From Escherichia coli (GTDB lineage: Bacteria; Pseudomonadota; Gammaproteobacteria; Enterobacterales; Enterobacteriaceae): a stretch of 64,000 nucleotides of DNA. Shown here in pieces: positions 30,931 to 41,269 of the stretch. Every line of letters starts with the position of its first letter. Within the stretch, counting starts at the first letter, position 1. The notes under the pieces are model-generated. The model was not told the origin of the DNA, did not search any database, and worked only from the letters and a program-made list of their open reading frames with translations. The translations under genes and the position numbers were made by a program. The stretch lies in NCBI RefSeq assembly GCF_044324785.1, contig NZ_CP172127.1; one strand, given 5' to 3'.

Positions 30931-31928
30931 CTTTCACTACTTCCACTCCTGGCAGTTTTCCTCTTTTTGTAGTGTCTCCCGGCTGCAGGCATCAGGTACT
31001 TTTCCGTCATTTCGTTGCAGAACTCTTCAATGTAGTTAATCAGCTTCTGGTGTGCTTTCACCTTTTCTTCCCCGGGGGACGCTTTCAGATAAATGTCCTC
31101 CTTTTCCACAAGTGTATTTATAAACTCTCCCGGACATCCCTGGTTATAAAGCAACGTGAAAAACAACACATTCCCCAGTCTCTCCAGTAACTGCGATTTA
31201 ACCCTGTATTGTTGTTTGCTGAGGATTGATTGTTTTATAAAGCTTAGTCTTGTTAAAAGTTGTTCAAATCCCGGTTCCAGTTTAAAAACAGATTTTAATA
31301 CCAGGGACTGATACTCCTGATAAAAAAGTTCAAACGTCGGGGATGCAGACTGACGAACAGATTTGGCTACAACCCATGGACTAAATCCCATGATTGGGAT
31401 TTCCTTCGCTCCCTCCAGCGCACTCAGAGGTAGTCCAGCAATCCATGCGTCCAGCTTAGCCGAATCAATATCCCCGCTCAAAACCTCATACAAACTGCCC
31501 GTGAACGGTTGAGTCGGTTTTTTTGTTGTTTTACCTTCTGATTGCCTGAATCCATCCACTTTTCTCCGGATATTACGCGGAATCAGCATAAAAGGCGGGA
31601 CATTAAGTGATAAACGTTTACCCGTCATACGATACCAGTGGCCCACCTCAACCTTAATCCGTGTATCTGGCCTTGTATCTGGCCTTGTATCTGGCCTTAG
31701 CTCAAGTGCTATTATGTTAAGCAGGTACAGATAACGCACCGTATAACAGTCAAAATGTTTCTCCGGATCAAACGGCTCTGATCGTTCTCTGCACACAAGT
31801 CCGCTGCGCTTCAGTATTCGCTGGGTATCTTTCCAGGCCTTACTCTGAAGAATGGTGGTAACTCTGGCTTTATTAGCAATCTCACGCAGCGCATCACTTT
31901 GTTGTGCCGTCATCTCTTCCCTCCACAC
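30927..31928 (-). CDS. Hypothetical protein (333 aa) with internal (TRPD)x3 repeat, divergent from the YfjP-like GTPase gene
   Basis: ORF convergent with the previous gene (stop codons overlap); in-frame 12-bp tandem repeat; no family recognised. Confidence 0.5.
   Translation of the reverse strand: MWREEMTAQQSDALREIANKARVTTILQSKAWKDTQRILKRSGLVCRERSEPFDPEKHFDCYTVRYLYLLNIIALELRPDTRPDTRPDTRIKVEVGHWYRMTGKRLSLNVPPFMLIPRNIRRKVDGFRQSEGKTTKKPTQPFTGSLYEVLSGDIDSAKLDAWIAGLPLSALEGAKEIPIMGFSPWVVAKSVRQSASPTFELFYQEYQSLVLKSVFKLEPGFEQLLTRLSFIKQSILSKQQYRVKSQLLERLGNVLFFTLLYNQGCPGEFINTLVEKEDIYLKASPGEEKVKAHQKLINYIEEFCNEMTEKYLMPAAGRHYKKRKTARSGSSES
31663..31698 (+). repeat. 12-bp perfect tandem repeat x3 (GTATCTGGCCTT), in-frame within the 333-aa gene
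   Basis: Three identical units encoding RPDTRPDTRPDTR on the minus strand. Confidence 0.9.
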
Positions 31929-32019
31929 TTTGTCACTCCAGATTTTTTCACGTCCATATTACCTGAATGATAAACCGGATTAGTGTGATCCGGTTCAGCG
32001 AAATCAACAGGATACCGGT

Positions 32020-32904
32020 ATGTCATTCAGCCATTCTTCCCTCTCTGCACAAGTGAAATCATATCTGACGTTTCTTCCTGAAGAAATTCGCCAGAAAATC
32101 CTTGAACATCTCCACGGTGTTATTCATTACGAGCCCGTGATTGGCATTATGGGTAAATCCGGCACAGGCAAAAGCAGCCTGTGTAATGCCATTTTTCAGT
32201 CCCATATCTGCGCCACGCATCCCCTGAACGGCTGCACCCGCCAGGCTCATCACCTCACCCTGCAGATCGGTGAACGCAGAATGACGCTGGTCGATCTGCC
32301 CGGCATTGGTGAGACACCGCAGCATGATCAGGAATACCGGGCACTTTATCATCAGTTGCTACCGGAACTGGATCTGATTATCTGGATCCTGCGGGCTGAT
32401 GAACGTGCGTATGCTGCCGATATTGCCATGCATCAGTTTTTACTGAATGAAGATGCCGATCCCTCGCGTTTTCTGTTTGTTCTCAGCCATGCCGATCGCG
32501 TGTTTCCTGCTGAAGAATGGAACGACACAGAAAAATGCCCGTCCCGTCAGCAGGAACTCTCACTGGCGACAGTAACAGCCCGGGTGGCCACCCTGTTCCC
32601 GTCATCATTTCCGGTACTCTCCGTTGCAGCGCCTGTCGGCTGGAATCTTCAGGCACTGGTGTCACTGATGATCCACGCACTGCCACCACAGGCAACCAGC
32701 GCGGTTTATTCGCATATCCGGAATGAAAAGCGCACTGCGCAGGATCAGCAACACGCACAGCAGGCTTTTGGTGACGCCATCGGCCAGAGTTTTGACGCTG
32801 CCATTGCCCGGTTCAGCTTTCCGGCCTGGATGCTGCAGCTTCTGCGCAAAGCCCGTGATCGCATTATCCGCCTGCTGATCACACTGTGGGATCGCCTGTT
32901 CTGA
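32020..32904 (+). CDS. YfjP/YeeP/YkfA-family GTPase (50S ribosome-binding GTPase domain)
   Basis: P-loop GIMGKSGTGKSSLCNAIF, then DLPGIGE (G3); conserved first gene of the CP4-type island terminal module. Confidence 0.8.
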   Translation: MSFSHSSLSAQVKSYLTFLPEEIRQKILEHLHGVIHYEPVIGIMGKSGTGKSSLCNAIFQSHICATHPLNGCTRQAHHLTLQIGERRMTLVDLPGIGETPQHDQEYRALYHQLLPELDLIIWILRADERAYAADIAMHQFLLNEDADPSRFLFVLSHADRVFPAEEWNDTEKCPSRQQELSLATVTARVATLFPSSFPVLSVAAPVGWNLQALVSLMIHALPPQATSAVYSHIRNEKRTAQDQQHAQQAFGDAIGQSFDAAIARFSFPAWMLQLLRKARDRIIRLLITLWDRLF

Positions 32905-33013
32905 ATGTCCCCGCTTTTTGACCGGCCCCGGCGATAACCAGGAAACGCATTTCCGGTTGCGTCACCACAATGCTGAAGGGCTTCGGTAAACCCTCATTCA
33001 TTTCATCCATCAG

Positions 33014-33044
33014 GCCGCGTCTTCTCCGTGAGACGCGGCTTTTT
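33014..33044 (+). terminator. Intrinsic terminator after the GTPase gene
   Basis: GCCGCGTCT-tctccgtg-AGACGCGGC followed by TTTTTC. Confidence 0.55.
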
Positions 33045-33089
33045 CATTGATTACGTCATTCAGTCTTAACCACTGATAAGGAGCAAAGT

Positions 33090-33908
33090 ATGCGATTAGC
33101 CAGTCGTTTTGGTTATGCGAACCAGATACGCCGTGACCGTCCGCTGACCCGTGAAGAGCTGATGCACCATGTGCCCGGGATTTTCGGGGAAGATAAACAC
33201 ACCTCCCGGAGCCGGAACTATACATACATCCCCACCATCACCGTGCTGGAAAGCCTGCAGCGGGAAGGCTTTCAGCCATTCTTCGCCTGCCAGACCCGCG
33301 TACGTGACCCGGGCCGCCGGGGGTATACCAAACACATGCTGCGTCTGCGCCGTGACGGGGAGATAAACGGACAACATGTCCCTGAAATCATCCTGCTGAA
33401 CTCCCATGACGGTACCTCCAGCTACCAGATGCTGCCGGGTTACTTCAGGTTCGTCTGCCAGAACGGATGCGTCTGCGGTCAGTCTCTGGGGGAAGTGCGT
33501 GTTCCGCACCGGGGAAATGTGGTGGACAGAGTCATTGAAGGGGCTTACGAGGTGGTGGGCGTGTTTGACCGGATAGAGGAGAAGCGTGATGCCATGCAGT
33601 CGCTGGTCCTGCCGCCACCGGCACGCCAGGCGCTGGCACAGGCGGCACTGACTTACCGTTATGGTGACGAACATCAGCCCGTCACCACCGCCGACATTCT
33701 GACACCACGACGCCGGGAGGATTACGGTAAGGACCTGTGGAGTGCTTATCAGACCATCCAGGAGAATATGCTGAAAGGCGGGATTTCCGGTCGCAGTGCA
33801 AAAGGAAAACGTATCCATACCCGGGCCATTCACAGCATTGATACCGATATAAAACTCAACCGCGCATTGTGGGTGATGGCAGAAACGCTGCTGGAGAGCA
33901 TGCGCTGA
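33090..33908 (+). CDS. DUF932-family protein (YfjQ-like)
   Basis: 272 aa; position and size match the YfjQ slot of CP4-type islands; recalled similarity only. Confidence 0.7.
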   Translation: MRLASRFGYANQIRRDRPLTREELMHHVPGIFGEDKHTSRSRNYTYIPTITVLESLQREGFQPFFACQTRVRDPGRRGYTKHMLRLRRDGEINGQHVPEIILLNSHDGTSSYQMLPGYFRFVCQNGCVCGQSLGEVRVPHRGNVVDRVIEGAYEVVGVFDRIEEKRDAMQSLVLPPPARQALAQAALTYRYGDEHQPVTTADILTPRRREDYGKDLWSAYQTIQENMLKGGISGRSAKGKRIHTRAIHSIDTDIKLNRALWVMAETLLESMR

Positions 33909-33999
33909 TGCTGTTTCCCTGAAAGTGCAGCCCTGACTCACGTCTGTACCAGTCCCCAGGCATTCTTCCATTCATTTACTTTTTATAAGGAATCATCTC

Positions 34000-34485
34000 A
34001 TGACAACCTTTTCGCATAGCTCCACCACACCTTCTGTTTCCGTAACTACTGCATCAGGGAATAACCAGTCTCAACTGGTTGCCACTCCCGTCCCTGATGA
34101 ACAGCGCATCAGCTTCTGGCCGCAGCATTTTGGCCTCATTCCACAGTGGGTGACCCTGGAGCCCCGTGTCTTCGGCTGGATGGACCGTCTGTGCGAAGAC
34201 TACTGCGGTGGTATCTGGAATCTGTACACCCTGAACAACGGCGGGGCATTTATGGCCCCCGAACCGGATGATGATGATGACGAAACATGGGTACTGTTCA
34301 ATGCCATGAACGGTAACCGCGCTGAAATGAGCCCGGAAGCCGCCGGCATTGCTGCCTGTCTGATGACGTACAGTCATCACGCCTGCCGTACGGAGTGTTA
34401 TGCCATGACGGTTCATTATTACCGTCTGCGGGATTACGCCCTGCAGCATCCGGAATGCAGCGCCATTATGCGCATCATTGACTGA
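34000..34485 (+). CDS. Antirestriction protein (ArdB/KlcA-like; YfjX/YafX family)
   Basis: 161 aa with acidic stretch PEPDDDDDETW and ...GGIWNLYTLNNGGAFMAPE, typical of KlcA/ArdB-like island proteins. Confidence 0.7.
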   Translation: MTTFSHSSTTPSVSVTTASGNNQSQLVATPVPDEQRISFWPQHFGLIPQWVTLEPRVFGWMDRLCEDYCGGIWNLYTLNNGGAFMAPEPDDDDDETWVLFNAMNGNRAEMSPEAAGIAACLMTYSHHACRTECYAMTVHYYRLRDYALQHPECSAIMRIID

Positions 34486-34500
34486 AAGGGGGCCGGAACA

Positions 34501-34977
34501 ATGCAACAGATTTCCTTTCTGCCCGGAGAAATGACAACCAGAGAGCGCAGCCTCATTCAGCGGGCCCTGAAAGCCCTGGACCGCCATCTTCATGAACCCG
34601 GCGTGGCCTTCACCTCCACCCGTGCGGCACGGGAATGGCTGATTCTGAACATGGCGGGACTGGAGCGTGAAGAATTCCGGGTGCTGTATCTGAACAACCA
34701 GAATCAGCTGATTGCCGGTGAAACCCTCTTCACCGGCACCATCAACCGCACGGAAGTCCATCCCCGGGAAGTGATTAAACGCGCCCTGTACCACAATGCC
34801 GCTGCCGTGGTGCTGGCACACAATCACCCGTCCGGTGAAGTCACACCCAGTAAGGCAGACCGCCTTATTACGGAACGTCTGGTACAGGCACTGGCCCTGG
34901 TGGATATCCGGGTGCCGGACCATCTGATAGTCGGTGGCAGCCAGGTTTTCTCCTTTGCCGAACATGGTCTGCTTTAA
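34501..34977 (+). CDS. RadC-like JAB/MPN-domain protein (YeeS/YfjY/YkfG family)
   Basis: JAMM motif HNHPSGEVTPSKADRLITERL; 158 aa. Confidence 0.85.
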   Translation: MQQISFLPGEMTTRERSLIQRALKALDRHLHEPGVAFTSTRAAREWLILNMAGLEREEFRVLYLNNQNQLIAGETLFTGTINRTEVHPREVIKRALYHNAAAVVLAHNHPSGEVTPSKADRLITERLVQALALVDIRVPDHLIVGGSQVFSFAEHGLL

Positions 34978-35039
34978 CCCGTCACAACCACATCACACCT
35001 GTTTTCACTTTTATCTTCTGTCTTCAGAGGTATCCCATT

Positions 35040-35261
35040 ATGAAAATCATCACCCGTGGTGAAGCCATGCGTATTCACCAACAGCATCCTGCATCCCGTC
35101 TTTTTCCGTTCTGTACCGGCAAATACCGCTGGCACGGTGGCACTGAAGCGTATACCGGTCGTGAAGTGCAGGATATTCCCGGTGTGCTGGCCGTGTTTGC
35201 AGAACGCCGTAAGGACAGTTTTGGTCCGTATGTCCGGCTGATGAGCGTCACCCTGAACTGA
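35040..35261 (+). CDS. DUF987-family small protein (YeeT/YkfH/YpjJ-like)
   Basis: 73 aa; conserved slot between the radC-like gene and the TA pair. Confidence 0.6.
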   Translation: MKIITRGEAMRIHQQHPASRLFPFCTGKYRWHGGTEAYTGREVQDIPGVLAVFAERRKDSFGPYVRLMSVTLN

Positions 35262-35275
35262 GTCAGGGCATTCTG

Positions 35276-35920
35276 ATGAGCAGAATTATCACCATCACAG
35301 TGTATACGCTGGATGAACTTTCCTGCCCGGCACGGGAAAAAGCCCGCGACGGGTACCGTCAGCATCATGCTGACAGCAGCTGGTATGAAAACGTGTATGA
35401 GGACTTCAGGGCGGTCTGTGACATTGTCGGGATTGCCCTCCGCCAGCGAGTTATCCGGCTCAGCAGCGGCAGGTTTATGGAAGAGCCGTGCATCTGGTTC
35501 AGCGGCTTCAGCAGCCAGGGGGACGGAGCCTGTTTTGACGGGCGCTGGCACTGGCAGCCGGCAACAGCCAGGAAAATCCGGGAATATGCCCCGCAGGACC
35601 GTGAGCTTCATCGTATCGCGGATGCCCTGCAGGCGGTGCAGAAGCGTAACTTCCGGCAGCTTCAGGCTGAAATCCGCCACCGGGGACGCTACTGCCATCC
35701 GTACAGCATGGATATCACCGTCACCCGGGACAGTCCGACTGGTCAGGCTATGACAGCCGATGCGGAAGCCGCTGTCAGCGAAGCCCTGCGCGACCTGGCC
35801 TTCTGGCTGTACCGTCAACTGGAAAACGAGTACGACCAGATGACCTCAGACGCCGCTGTGGATGAGGCCATTCTCATCAATGCATACATCTTCACCGAAA
35901 CCGGTCAGCGCACCGGCTGA
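35276..35920 (+). CDS. Hypothetical protein (214 aa) in the variable slot between the DUF987 gene and cbeA
   Basis: ORF with consistent coding composition; no motif recognised; the overlapping antisense ORF 35075..35818 is rejected. Confidence 0.5.
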   Translation: MSRIITITVYTLDELSCPAREKARDGYRQHHADSSWYENVYEDFRAVCDIVGIALRQRVIRLSSGRFMEEPCIWFSGFSSQGDGACFDGRWHWQPATARKIREYAPQDRELHRIADALQAVQKRNFRQLQAEIRHRGRYCHPYSMDITVTRDSPTGQAMTADAEAAVSEALRDLAFWLYRQLENEYDQMTSDAAVDEAILINAYIFTETGQRTG

Positions 35921-35969
35921 CCTGTCATCGTTAAACCATTCTTAACCACTTTTCAGAGAGGATTTTATC

Positions 35970-36338
35970 GTGTCAGACACACTCTCCGGGATAACTCATC
36001 CCGACGACAATCACGACCGCCCCTGGTGGGGGCTTCCCTGCACAGTGAGGCCCTGTTTTGGCGCCCGTCTGGTGCAGGAGGGTAACCGGTTGCATTACCT
36101 TGCCGACCGCGCCGGCATCAGAGGCCGGTTCAGCGATGCGGATGCATACCATCTGGACCAGGCCTTTCCGCTGCTGATGAAACAACTGGAACTCATGCTC
36201 ACCAGCGGTGAACTGAATCCCCGCCATCAGCATACCGTCACGCTGTATGCAAAAGGGCTGACCTGCGAAGCCGACACCCTCGGCAGTTGTGGTTACGTTT
36301 ATCTGGCTGTTTATCCGACGCCCGAAACGAAAAAGTAA
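35970..36338 (+). CDS. cbeA: CbeA/YeeU/YfjZ-family type IV antitoxin
   Basis: MSDTLSGITHPDDNHDRPWWGLPCTVRPCFGARLVQEGNRLHYLADRAGIRGRF...YVYLAVYPTPE matches the family. Confidence 0.8.
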   Translation: MSDTLSGITHPDDNHDRPWWGLPCTVRPCFGARLVQEGNRLHYLADRAGIRGRFSDADAYHLDQAFPLLMKQLELMLTSGELNPRHQHTVTLYAKGLTCEADTLGSCGYVYLAVYPTPETKK

Positions 36339-36428
36339 ACCACCGGAATAACCTTCTGCTCCGGCCAGGTGTTTTCACCACGCCACTCTCCCCATAATTT
36401 AATCTCTCATATCAGGAAAATCTTCAGT

Positions 36429-36839
36429 ATGAAATTATTACCCGACACACATGTACGGGAGGCATCGTGCTGCCCGTCTCCCGTCACCATCTGGCAGACA
36501 CTGCTCATCCGTCTGCTGGACCAGCACTATGGCCTCACACTGAATGACACACCGTTCGCTGATGAACGTGTGATTGAGCAGCATATTGAGGCCGGCATTT
36601 CACTGTGCGATGCGGTGAACTTTCTCGTTGAAAAATACGCACTGGTACGTACCGACCAGCCGGGATTCAGCGCAGGAGCCCCGTCGCAGTTAATCAACAG
36701 CATCGATATTCTCCGGGCCCGCCGGGCAACAGGCCTGATGACACGTAATAACTACAGAATGGTAAATAACATTACCCTGGGTAGCATCCGGGGGCGAAAC
36801 GATGAAACTTTCCCTGACGCTGGAAGCCGACAGCGTTAA
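36429..36839 (+). CDS. cbtA: CbtA/YeeV/YpjF-family toxin (cytoskeleton-binding toxin)
   Basis: ...[67 protein letters not shown]...[16 protein letters not shown] matches the CbtA family; start set at MKLLPDTH. Confidence 0.75.
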
Positions 36840-37227
36840 CGTACAGGCGCTGAACATGGGGCGAATTGTCGTTGACATTGATGGTGTTGAGCTCACTGAA
36901 CTGATTAACAAGGTCGCTGAAAACGGTTATTCACTCCGCGTGGTGGATGAACGTGACGCTACCGAAACACCGGCGACTTCTGCCAGCTCTCATCAGTTGC
37001 CGGAAGACAATACAGTGATACAGAGCGTGATGCCATTAACCACTGAAACAGCGCTGGATATCCTCATTGCGTGGCTGCAGGACAATATCGACTGCGGGTC
37101 CGGAATTATTTTCGACAACGATGAGGATAAAACGGATTCGGCAGCACTGCTGCCCTGTATCGAACAGGCCAGAGCAGATATCCGCACCCTGCGCCAGCTG
37201 CAGCAGCTTCTGCAACAGAACCGGTGA
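36802..37227 (+). CDS. YeeW-like hypothetical protein
   Basis: 141-aa ORF in the slot occupied by yeeW downstream of cbtA in CP4-44 (recalled); overlaps the cbtA 3' end. Confidence 0.45.
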
Positions 37228-37323
37228 GTCTTACTCATCATCTCACTCACCAGACTTCATTCCACTGACACCAGCCTGAACAGGGCTGGCGTTTTCATTT
37301 ATCTGCAAAAAGGAATATCGATT

Positions 37324-38190
37324 ATGTCTAAAATCACAGTCTCCCGTCCGGAAGTGGTCAACGGGCATACGGACGTTATCTGTTCCACCTCAATCTGCCA
37401 CATTCTGGCTGTACGAAAGAATACACTGCTGCAAATCGACACACTTATCCGGCAACTGGCTGAAATCTCGGTGCTGACGGAAAGCATCGGAGGTAAAACT
37501 GCCCCGGACTGGGCCATGAAACAGGATTTTCGCTGCGGATGCTGGCTCATGGAGAAACCTGAAACGGCAATGAAAGCCATTACCCGGAATCTTGACCGCG
37601 AAATCTGGCGTGACCTGATGCAACGTTCAGGGATGCTTTCCTTAATGGATGCACAGGCCCGTGATACATGGTACCGATCACTGGAATACGATAATTTTCC
37701 GGAAATCAGTGAAGCGAACATTCTGAGCACATTTGAACAACTGCACCAGAATAAGGATGAGGTGTTTGAGCGAGGGGTGATCAACGTCTTCAGGGGACTG
37801 AGCTGGAATTACAAAACCAATTGCCCCTGCAAATTTGGCAGTAAAATTATCGTCAACAACCTGGTGAGGTGGGACCGGTGGGGGTTTCATCTGAACAACG
37901 GCCCACAGGCCGATCGACTTGCCGATCTGGAAAGAATGCTGCACCTGTTCAGCGGCAAACCGATCCCCGACAACCGGGAAAACATCACCATTCATCTGGA
38001 TGATCACATCCAGTCTGTTCAGGGTAAAGAGGACTATGAAGATGAGATGTTCAGCATCAGATACTTTAAGAAGGGCTCCGCGCACATCACGTTCAGGAAA
38101 CCAGAGCTGGTTGACAGGCTTAATGATATTATTGCCAGACACTACCCGGAAGCCCTGGCAAGCACAGTGAACAAAAGCCGCAAGGCATAA
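37324..38190 (+). CDS. Hypothetical protein (288 aa), conserved-looking island protein of unknown function
   Basis: Long ORF with the GGAATATCGATTATG start context; no catalytic motif recognised. Confidence 0.5.
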   Translation: MSKITVSRPEVVNGHTDVICSTSICHILAVRKNTLLQIDTLIRQLAEISVLTESIGGKTAPDWAMKQDFRCGCWLMEKPETAMKAITRNLDREIWRDLMQRSGMLSLMDAQARDTWYRSLEYDNFPEISEANILSTFEQLHQNKDEVFERGVINVFRGLSWNYKTNCPCKFGSKIIVNNLVRWDRWGFHLNNGPQADRLADLERMLHLFSGKPIPDNRENITIHLDDHIQSVQGKEDYEDEMFSIRYFKKGSAHITFRKPELVDRLNDIIARHYPEALASTVNKSRKA

Positions 38191-38261
38191 AAGAGGTATT
38201 TTACAATTCGCGAATATTAACTATTATTAATTGATAGTAATCAATCGGCGAGAAAATAACC

Positions 38262-38525
38262 ATGCCTACCAGTGTATCCCTCAGTCCTTACTTTGAAACG
38301 TTTATCCGCGAACAAATAGAAAGTGGTCGGTACAACAATACAAGTGAAGTCATTCGTGCCGGACTTCGTGCGCTGGAAGAACGGGAACAGCAGATAAAGC
38401 TTGAATCACTCCAGAGCGCCGTGACCGCAGGCATCAACAGCGGTGAAAGTAAAAGTGCTGAAGAGGTATTCGGGCGACTGACGCACAAATACAAAAAGAT
38501 GGCAGAAGGTGAACAGCCAATATGA
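38262..38525 (+). CDS. parD: ParD-family type II antitoxin (ribbon-helix-helix)
   Basis: 87 aa; ...SEVIRAGLRALEEREQQIKLESLQSAVTAGINSGES... typical of ParD; stop overlaps the toxin start (ATGA at 38522). Confidence 0.75.
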   Translation: MPTSVSLSPYFETFIREQIESGRYNNTSEVIRAGLRALEEREQQIKLESLQSAVTAGINSGESKSAEEVFGRLTHKYKKMAEGEQPI

Positions 38526-38848
38526 AACTGACTGTTTCACCATTAGCAGAACACGATCTTGAAGCTATAGGTGACTGGATCGCTCAGGATAATCCTGTCC
38601 GTGCAATCAGTTTTACCGAAGAGCTTTACCAACAATGTCTGTTGATAGCCGAATCGCCAGTACTCTACAGAGAAAGACCCGAGTTAGGGGCTGGGATCAG
38701 AGGTTGTTCGTATGGTCGTTACCTTCTGCTGTTCAGGGTACTGGATACTGAAGTTCGTATCGAACGTATCGTTCATGGTTCCCGGGATATCAACAGGGTA
38801 CTTGCAGAGCCAGACGACAAACCATCAGATCATTTCTGGCAGCCATAA
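38522..38848 (+). CDS. parE: ParE/RelE-family type II toxin
   Basis: 108 aa, ...LLLFRVLDTEVRIERIVHGSRD... ParE-like; translationally coupled to parD. Confidence 0.75.
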   Translation: MKLTVSPLAEHDLEAIGDWIAQDNPVRAISFTEELYQQCLLIAESPVLYRERPELGAGIRGCSYGRYLLLFRVLDTEVRIERIVHGSRDINRVLAEPDDKPSDHFWQP

Positions 38849-39730: not shown

Positions 39731-41269
39731 ATGCAACAACCTGTAGTTCGCGTTGGCGAATGGCTTGTTACTCCGTCCATAAACCAAATTAGCCGCAATG
39801 GGCGTCAACTTACCCTTGAGCCGAGATTAATCGATCTTCTGGTTTTCTTTGCTCAACACAGTGGCGAAGTACTTAGCAGGGATGAACTTATCGATAATGT
39901 CTGGAAGAGAAGTATTGTCACCAATCACGTTGTGACGCAGAGTATCTCAGAACTACGTAAGTCATTAAAAGATAATGATGAAGATAGTCCTGTCTATATC
40001 GCTACTGTACCAAAGCGCGGCTATAAATTAATGGTGCCGGTTATCTGGTACAGCGAAGAAGAGGGAGAGGAAATAATGCTATCTTCGCCTCCCCCTATAC
40101 CAGAGGCGGTTCCTGACACAGCTTCTCCCTCCCACAGTCTTAACATTCAAAACACCGCAACACCACCTGAACAATCCCCTGTTAAAAGCAAACGATTCAC
40201 TACCTTTTGGGTATGGTTTTTTTTCCTGTTGTCGTTAGGTATCTGTGTAGCACTGGTAGCGTTTTCAAGTCTTGATACACGTCTTCCTATGAGCAAATCG
40301 CGTATTTTGCTCAATCCACGCGATATTGACATTAATATGGTTAATAAGAGTTGTAACAGCTGGAGTTCTCCGTATCAGCTCTCTTACGCGATAGGCGTGG
40401 GTGATTTGGTGGCGACATCACTTAACACCTTCTCCACCTTTATGGTGCATGACAAAATCAACTACAACATTGATGAACCGAGCAGTTCCGGTAAAACATT
40501 ATCTATTGCGTTTGTTAATCAGCGCCAATACCGTGCTCAACAATGCTTTATGTCGGTAAAATTGGTAGACAATGCAGATGGTTCAACCATGCTGGATAAA
40601 CGTTATGTCATCACTAACGGTAATCAGCTGGCGATTCAAAATGATTTACTCCAGAGTTTATCAAAAGCGTTAAACCAACCATGGCCACAACGAATGCAGG
40701 AGATGCTCCAGCAAATTTTGCCGCATCGTGGTGCGTTATTAACTAATTTTTATCAGGCACATGATTATTTACTGCATGGTGATGATAAATCATTGGATCG
40801 TGCCAGTGAATTATTAGGTGAGATTGTTCAATCATCCCCAGAATTTACCTACGCGAGAGCAGAAAAAGCATTAGTTGATATCGTGCGCCATTCTCAACAT
40901 CCTTTAGCCGAAAAACAATTAGCAGCACTGAACACAGAAATAGATAACATTGTTACACTGCCGGAATTGAACAACCTGTCCATTATATATCAAATAAAAG
41001 CGGTCAGTGCCCTGGTAAAAGGTAAAACAGATGAGTCTTATCAGGCGATAAATACTGGCATTGATCTTGAAATGTCCTGGCTAAATTATGTGTTGCTTGG
41101 CAAGGTTTATGAAATGAAGGGGATGAACCGGGAAGCAGCTGATGCATATCTCACCGCCTTTAATTTACGCCCAGGGGCAAACACCCTTTACTGGATTGAA
41201 AATGGTATATTCCAGACTTCTGTTCCTTATGTTGTACCTTATCTCGACAAATTTCTCGCTTCAGAATAA
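39731..41269 (+). CDS. cadC: CadC, membrane-integrated ToxR-like activator of cadBA
   Basis: 512 aa, MQQPVVRVGEWLVTPSINQISRNGRQLTLEPRLIDLLVFF...; single TM segment (FTTFWVWFFFLLSLGICVALVAF); matches K-12 CadC. Confidence 0.95.
   Translation: MQQPVVRVGEWLVTPSINQISRNGRQLTLEPRLIDLLVFFAQHSGEVLSRDELIDNVWKRSIVTNHVVTQSISELRKSLKDNDEDSPVYIATVPKRGYKLMVPVIWYSEEEGEEIMLSSPPPIPEAVPDTASPSHSLNIQNTATPPEQSPVKSKRFTTFWVWFFFLLSLGICVALVAFSSLDTRLPMSKSRILLNPRDIDINMVNKSCNSWSSPYQLSYAIGVGDLVATSLNTFSTFMVHDKINYNIDEPSSSGKTLSIAFVNQRQYRAQQCFMSVKLVDNADGSTMLDKRYVITNGNQLAIQNDLLQSLSKALNQPWPQRMQEMLQQILPHRGALLTNFYQAHDYLLHGDDKSLDRASELLGEIVQSSPEFTYARAEKALVDIVRHSQHPLAEKQLAALNTEIDNIVTLPELNNLSIIYQIKAVSALVKGKTDESYQAINTGIDLEMSWLNYVLLGKVYEMKGMNREAADAYLTAFNLRPGANTLYWIENGIFQTSVPYVVPYLDKFLASE

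Follow-up and report, generated by a model that had tools for sequence, protein, structure and literature searches.

Our analysis of the window, by which we mean the whole 64,000-nt stretch of Escherichia coli DNA studied here, indicates that the 214-aa gene between the DUF987 gene and cbeA, which we call X, is very probably a catalogued and long-standing member of the DUF932/antirestriction/RadC/DUF987/CbeA-CbtA module, lost from it by deletion where it is missing. X reads from the sequence as an ATG-to-TGA open reading frame on the + strand (35276-35920), just the position and size given in the preliminary description of this DNA, and its protein is identical to WP_072648643.1 of E. coli GF60. 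RefSeq annotation of the identical GF60 locus gives the same array order as in the window, namely GTPase, DUF932, antirestriction, RadC, DUF987, X, YeeU-family antitoxin and CbtA-family toxin, and thereby bears out the flanking genes as they had earlier been named.

In the window the annotated array runs co-directionally on the + strand from 33090 to 34977 through the DUF932 gene (33090-33908), an ArdB/KlcA-type antirestriction gene (34000-34485) and a RadC-like JAB gene (34501-34977), followed by the yeeT-like DUF987 gene (35040-35261, +, named from the RefSeq annotation of the identical locus). Only 14 nt (35262-35275, +) separate the DUF987 stop from the start of X, and they include a Shine-Dalgarno-like AGGG (35265-35268), 7 nt ahead of the ATG; the two features together suggest that X is expressed operon-style with the genes upstream. 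As weaker evidence, no sigma-70-like promoter was found on the + strand in 31900-38199, the sole one found beginning at 38200, and terminator-like hairpins lie at 33012-33041 and 37271-37289. An antisense open reading frame of 247 codons (35075-35818, -) overlaps X.

The end of X is separated by 49 nt from the GTG start of cbeA, a yeeU-family type IV antitoxin gene (35970-36338, +), which is intact. The cbtA toxin gene (36429-36839, +) is frameshifted, as judged from the annotation of the identical GF60 locus and an alignment to intact cbtA: a 1-nt deletion near 36780 swaps the last 8 residues and lengthens the reading frame by about 12 codons. Further on, at 36802-37227, the DUF5983 and DUF957 genes form one 141-codon open reading frame, some 356 nt present in the intact island L020 having been deleted; homology to L020 ends at 36957 and restarts at 37034. 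A ParD/ParE-type toxin-antitoxin (TA) pair closes the island just before cadC (regions 38262-38848 and 39731-41269). No tRNA gene was detected within the window; in the closely matching locus of strain B1 an integrase gene fragment lies between ParE and cadC. At the other end, window positions 1-24000 are 94% covered by strain TUM9803 at 99.7% identity, which shows there an ABC transporter, sodC, an fdrA/ylbE/carbamate-kinase cluster with a xanthine permease, a YadA-like adhesin and several IS fragments.

X is a real coding gene under purifying selection. Its homologues form 3482 clusters at 90% identity in a large protein collection, and an exhaustive HMMER search yields a family of 3345 representatives at 50% identity. 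When five E. coli alleles of X are compared in pairs, dN/dS lies between 0.18 and 0.50 (mean 0.31), and the window allele stands furthest from the rest (0.35-0.50). The corresponding values for other genes of these loci are 0.10 (RadC), 0.08 (DUF987), 0.23 (antirestriction gene) and 0.20 (cbeA). The homologues and these ratios, together with the retention of all conserved family residues and the confident AlphaFold2 model described below, establish that the reading frame is no product of chance.

How common is X in E. coli, and what lies in the slot where it is missing? Megablast finds sequence of X in 2827 of 5426 complete genomes, and 1942 of the 5426 have a copy with 80% or more of its length. 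Complete or as a remnant, X occupies 4190 places, while the DUF987 gene occupies 12918 places in 4801 genomes. Some of the E. coli copies are pseudogenes, with an internal stop or a truncation. When "empty" DUF987-cbeA spacers are aligned against the window, they turn out to retain pieces of the gene. The CP4-44 spacer of K-12 and the spacer of strain B1, whose island lies next to cadC as here, both keep the ATG of X and its first 6-7 codons (window 35276-35294/7) and resume at 35935/7, 15-17 nt past the X stop. In O157:H7 the DUF987 stop runs straight into the final 113 nt of X (35808-35920), and isolate F1053 keeps the last 94 nt (35827-35920). The remnants, 19-22 nt from the beginning of X or 94-113 nt from its end, are unannotated (L003 3540-3612, the K-12 CP4-44 yeeT-cbeA spacer; L004 15968-16046; L024 1501-1613; L025 1501-1594).

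Because 5' or 3' pieces of X persist in these slots, we conclude that the slots arose by deletion. They represent at least three distinct deletion scars, and the arrangement in K-12 CP4-44 and O157:H7 is, on this comparison, derived by loss. In K-12 CP4-57 and CP4-6, where the antitoxin is of a different type, no X remnant was found, so that the deletion account applies to modules of the cbeA/yeeU type. The preliminary description had seen X as an extra insertion into a conserved module and had proposed comparing the slot across other E. coli islands; that comparison brings out deletion scars and not insertion, and the view of X as an extra gene gives way before these remnants and before the fixed place of X in alphaproteobacterial arrays, to which we return below.

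The description of X as unrecognised fares no better, since the gene belongs to a catalogued family, matches a known profile over its full length and is present at 80% coverage or more in the 1942 E. coli genomes just counted. Residues 2-213 align with positions 2-198 of the 201 in phrog_5162, a profile of unknown function, at E=1.2e-35. One truncated copy is named "DUF8835 domain-containing" in RefSeq, other copies being called "hypothetical protein"; the DUF8835 label as we use it for the family comes from this RefSeq annotation of a homologous truncated copy and not from a Pfam-model match of our own. With the same length and the same conserved motifs, X is a full-length member of DUF8835/phrog_5162 that differs from it in no respect. 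What did hold of the earlier account is that the protein has no recognisable characterised motif: Pfam-A has no family for X even at E<=10 and none for 91 family members at E<=0.001, NCBIfam gives no match for X, and no family among the PADLOC-DB defence-system models matches it at E<=1. A Foldseek search, one of the checks proposed at the outset, was run against AFDB50, and the 50 matches listed are essentially members of the X family itself, nearly all carrying the same propagated names. X is a widespread and already annotated member of the module, an outcome that the preliminary description had itself set down as telling against its proposal.

The names under which X circulates are a separate matter. 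Some UniProt entries name it after CbeA, and its antitoxin-type database name is one that the literature applies to RelB-type proteins. The likeness to Phd/RelB antitoxins goes as far as this name and, in Enterobacteriaceae, frequent nearness to a TA pair. Phd/RelB-type antitoxins are roughly 70-100 aa long, whereas X has 214 aa, lacks a nearby cognate toxin in most lineages, and has a fold unmatched among solved antitoxin structures. We rejected X as a Phd/YefM- or RelB-type antitoxin, the PhdYeFM_antitox and RelB profiles giving no match; as a homologue of CbeA/YeeU (PF06154), with an hhalign probability of 0.2% for the family alignment against the window CbeA and no PF06154 match; and as a relative of its ArdB-type neighbour, again with an hhalign probability of 0.2%. 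We found no paper on DUF8835, phrog_5162, the WP accessions of X or the yeeT-yeeU slot. Given that neither a Phd/RelB nor a CbeA relationship could be seen and that no paper on the family was found, the antitoxin name that RefSeq gives to X is unsupported by its sequence and is probably wrong.

Conservation within the family is concentrated in a few motifs. In a 91-sequence family alignment the window copy keeps all 26 conserved columns, 2 of them invariant and 24 near-invariant. The most conserved motif lies at codons 75-89 (FSGFSSQGDGACFDG, 35499-35543, +; consensus FSGFxSQGDGAcFeG), and within it Q81, G82, D83, G84 and A85 are invariant or nearly so in alignments that include phage homologues. 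A second motif, HxGxYxH, lies at codons 135-141 (HRGRYCH, 35678-35698, +), with H141 invariant. The C-terminal part, codons 172-210 (35789-35905, +), forms helices and a hairpin in the AlphaFold2 model, and in the alignments R172, L182, F206 and G210 are invariant and W177 and N202 near-invariant. The window copy thus has every family motif (FSGFxSQGDGA, HxGxYxH, RDLAxWxYxxL and N..F...G) as well as the family length of about 214 aa. Even in phage homologues that share only about 30% identity, a few polar residues are kept, namely Q81, D83, H141, R172 and N202, and glycines and hydrophobic residues are likewise conserved. Such a pattern points to a defined site for binding or catalysis more than to DNA mimicry.

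The AlphaFold2 model, built with the 91-sequence alignment, has a mean pLDDT of 96.5 and a pTM of 0.89, and X is predicted to be a soluble alpha/beta protein of constant length (214 aa) in a family that is mostly acidic. The family has a median net charge of -16 and a median pI of 4.8; the window copy is only mildly acidic, with a net charge of -5. No solved structure resembling the predicted fold was found, and a PDB sequence search with the single X sequence and with the profile returned chance matches only (E>0.1). Nor was a nucleic-acid-binding or nuclease fold detected for X. On one 2.5-kb contig we came across a variant of 283 aa (P0001) with an internal N-terminal tandem duplication of about 69 residues, a single occurrence that may be an assembly artefact.

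Outside E. coli, we scanned one genome per species and found 546 stretches that encode a relative of X, the context being taken from the best 80. Almost all of these best 80 of 546 loci are from Alphaproteobacteria of many orders, where the protein is 57-62% identical to the window copy and exactly 214 aa long. The alphaproteobacterial order is ArdC, a ParB-like protein, a 138-aa gene, X, a methyltransferase/helicase and a Toprim protein. Upstream of X, a large ParB_N protein is present in 58 loci, 64 loci extending more than 3 kb in that direction, and of the 80 loci 40 have ArdC, 30 DUF2958 and 14 RadC. Downstream, a 1440-aa methyltransferase/helicase (Pfam AAA_34, Helicase_C_4), which recalls DarB of phage P1, is found in every one of the 62 loci with more than 3 kb of downstream sequence, and the Toprim protein in 50 of the 80. 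X is a fixed backbone member of these alphaproteobacterial conjugative-element arrays.

A gene of about 138 aa lies directly upstream of X in 70 of the 80 loci and overlaps it by 8 nt in 66 of 73, which suggests that the two are translationally coupled and form a two-gene unit. The window lacks this partner, which is unannotated in the loci concerned (L005 7592-8008; L009 9589-10008; L015 4823-5233; 70 of L115-L194) and for which Pfam, NCBIfam and PHROG give no significant match. We considered DUF987 as its E. coli counterpart and rejected the idea: the BLASTP score is marginal (E=0.034), the hhalign probability is 0.1%, and the partner family has no match in the window. The RadC of the window is 36-41% identical to the RadC of alphaproteobacterial arrays that also carry X, and the ParB, methyltransferase/helicase and Toprim proteins of the Alphaproteobacteria have no homologue in the window segment.

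Conjugative plasmids provide a closer parallel. Those of the MOBP/MPF_T type from Rhodobacterales and Hyphomicrobiales carry, in this order, ssb, DUF932, RadC, RadC, DUF6878, further genes, X and a ParS/Xre-RES pair, an arrangement that parallels the E. coli order of DUF932, antirestriction, RadC, DUF987, X and CbeA/CbtA. On a Sphingomonas plasmid the genes preceding X are those for ParB, an ArdC-like protein and a PAPS-reductase-like protein. We do not assert a placement of X in the leading region, the relaxase gene lying about 25 kb from X in the one plasmid checked.

X is also found in 46 GenBank phages, among them Caulobacter jumbo phages and others of Pseudomonas, Acinetobacter, Escherichia and Klebsiella, and on 255 IMG/VR contigs. 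In the Caulobacter jumbo phages (MH588545, MH588546, MZ574429-32 and others) X lies inside the annotated terminal repeats, so that there are two copies per genome. In the two lytic phages inspected it sits among long runs of small hypothetical genes. The viral contigs show no conserved neighbour, the commonest neighbour family occurring in 10 of 80 loci; recurrent neighbours, judged by reading their sequences, include a primase-helicase, an SNF2-type helicase and a DNA polymerase.

What might such a protein do? The presence of X in virulent phages suggests that it serves incoming DNA and not the host, and its genomic surroundings are in keeping with a part in anti-defence or establishment and speak against defence. 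Judging from this company, we favour the view that X promotes establishment or counter-defence by binding or inactivating one specific host component, a reading that we hold tentatively and regard as plausible, if somewhat short of probable. On such a scheme X would act soon after the DNA of an element enters a new cell and help it to become established; it would bind or inactivate a host factor that attacks or senses incoming DNA, as anti-restriction proteins do, with its conserved polar residues as the presumed site of binding or catalysis. The timing, the target and the mechanism are all our conjecture.

The comparison with known anti-restriction proteins (ArdA, ArdB/KlcA, ArdC, Ocr) cuts both ways. 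X resembles them in genomic company, that is, in its association with ArdC, an ArdB-type gene, RadC, ParB-like genes and a methyltransferase/helicase, in its spread over plasmids, integrative and conjugative elements (ICEs) and lytic phages, and in being small, soluble and mostly acidic. It differs in having a few invariant polar residues rather than an acidic surface, and it shows no sequence, profile or fold likeness to them. X is by these measures no member of ArdA, ArdB/KlcA or ArdC, having neither a sequence or profile match to them nor a shared fold, and more generally we found no known anti-restriction or anti-defence protein similar to it by sequence or fold. Among the points against the establishment role are the net charge of only -5 of the window copy and the invariant polar residues, which suggest a specific pocket and not DNA mimicry. 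Moreover, the frequent loss of X and the occasional pseudogenes show that resident E. coli islands can do without it.

A bolder form of this proposal, which we consider possible and yet doubtful, is that X represents a new counter-defence/establishment class, with a fold so far unseen in solved structures and a Q-D-H-R-N pocket that would act on a host immune component or signal. Under the same proposal the class would be common to alphaproteobacterial ICEs and conjugative plasmids, enterobacterial islands and lytic phages.

Alternatively, X could assist the incoming element in processing or replicating its DNA, through single-strand handling, priming or recombination, and have nothing to do with counter-defence. 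The alphaproteobacterial loci, with X fixed between the ParB-like protein and the methyltransferase/helicase and Toprim proteins, lend themselves to such an explanation, as do the helicase and polymerase genes beside X in viral contigs, and its invariant D, H, R and N residues would be fitting in a nucleic-acid enzyme. However, no nucleic-acid-binding or nuclease fold is detected in X, an acidic family would be unusual for a DNA-binding protein, and even the commonest phage neighbour accompanies X in just 10 of 80 loci. X also persists in E. coli islands, where the window segment has no homologue of the ParB, methyltransferase/helicase or Toprim proteins. We judge a helper role of this kind to be unlikely.

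The family might instead be functional in transferable elements and X in the CP4-type islands of E. coli a decaying relic. Several of the observations above are what such decay would produce: the repeated independent deletions, the copies with an internal stop or truncation, the higher dN/dS of X (0.31, compared with 0.10 for RadC and 0.08 for DUF987) with the window allele the most divergent of all, and the damage to the adjoining cbtA and DUF5983 genes in the window. Set against this, dN/dS for X is well below 1 and similar to that of the antirestriction gene (0.23) and cbeA (0.20), and the window copy has its frame intact at exactly 214 codons with all 26 conserved residues kept, so that we think decay a distinctly unlikely description of X in these islands.

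Could X nevertheless belong with toxin-antitoxin loci, as the names given to it in databases would have it, and be a third component, regulator or second antitoxin of CbeA/CbtA and other such pairs? In Enterobacteriaceae it always lies at or inside the CbeA/CbtA locus, in varying order. E. coli and one Salmonella lineage have DUF987, X, CbeA and CbtA, with X directly upstream of cbeA; Klebsiella michiganensis (L110 8610-9996) has DUF987, CbeA, X and CbtA with gaps of 13 and 33 nt; and Salmonella diarizonae (L112 5293-7084) has DUF987, CbeA, CbeA, X and CbtA with a 4-nt overlap. The splitting of the CbeA antitoxin from the CbtA toxin by X in the last two species is an unusual arrangement. In two alphaproteobacterial plasmids a ParS/Xre-RES pair lies directly downstream of X. 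Furthermore, 454 of 5426 E. coli genomes, ST131 included, share a 34-nt deletion in the X-cbeA spacer that puts the X stop in frame with cbeA, and in the roughly 29 closest genomes (at least 99% identical to the fusion junction) a TGA-to-TTA change would fuse the two proteins; the fusion of 343 aa is seen on E. coli chromosome CP138416.1 (L196 3001-4032, junction L196 3651/3652).

Still, this fusion takes a single stop-codon change in an allele already in frame, and it may be an accident. Within the representative set a TA pair stands beside X in only 2 of 80 loci, one ParS/Xre-RES and one CbeA/CbtA (Salmonella), and the phage copies inspected have no TA neighbour; over these 80 loci and the phage loci, X is not obligately paired with an adjacent cognate toxin gene. 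It shows no sequence or profile similarity to Phd/YefM, RelB or CbeA. CbeA/YeeU adjoins X in the same operon-like array and is fused to it in frame in a minority allele, but the two are without homology, X is widespread without CbeA/CbtA, and CbeA/CbtA is widespread without X. K-12 itself has three CbtA-family systems without X, which are described as functional TA pairs (PMC5371832). A part for X in toxin-antitoxin function is on this evidence improbable. As to the array as a whole, the antirestriction-type and RadC-type neighbours in K-12 CP4-57 (L108 1420-2369) are now named lfgA and lfgB ('CP4-57 prophage protease'), and LfgB has been reported to cleave the antitoxin MqsA (2024, PMC10846083), a report that may bear on the role of the whole array.

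That X is defence cargo, an anti-phage or anti-plasmid gene of the island, is very improbable: such islands often carry defence genes, but no tool result favours this here, no PADLOC model matches, a single small gene without a recognisable effector or sensor domain is involved, and its occurrence in virulent phages and conjugative backbones is typical of genes that serve the invader.

As a discovery the gene is ordinary, since X and its family are already in the databases and the gene is common. More generally, the textbook module of K-12 and O157 emerges as a deletion derivative, and the fuller array with X mirrors those of alphaproteobacterial conjugative plasmids. The family is large, strongly conserved and confidently folded, has no solved relative, and keeps company with genes of the anti-restriction type and with the small-gene runs of phages. 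These properties and contexts make X a reasonable and cheap candidate for anti-defence and DNA-establishment screens. If X does prove to represent a new counter-defence/establishment class, thousands of genomes would then carry a mistaken antitoxin annotation for it.
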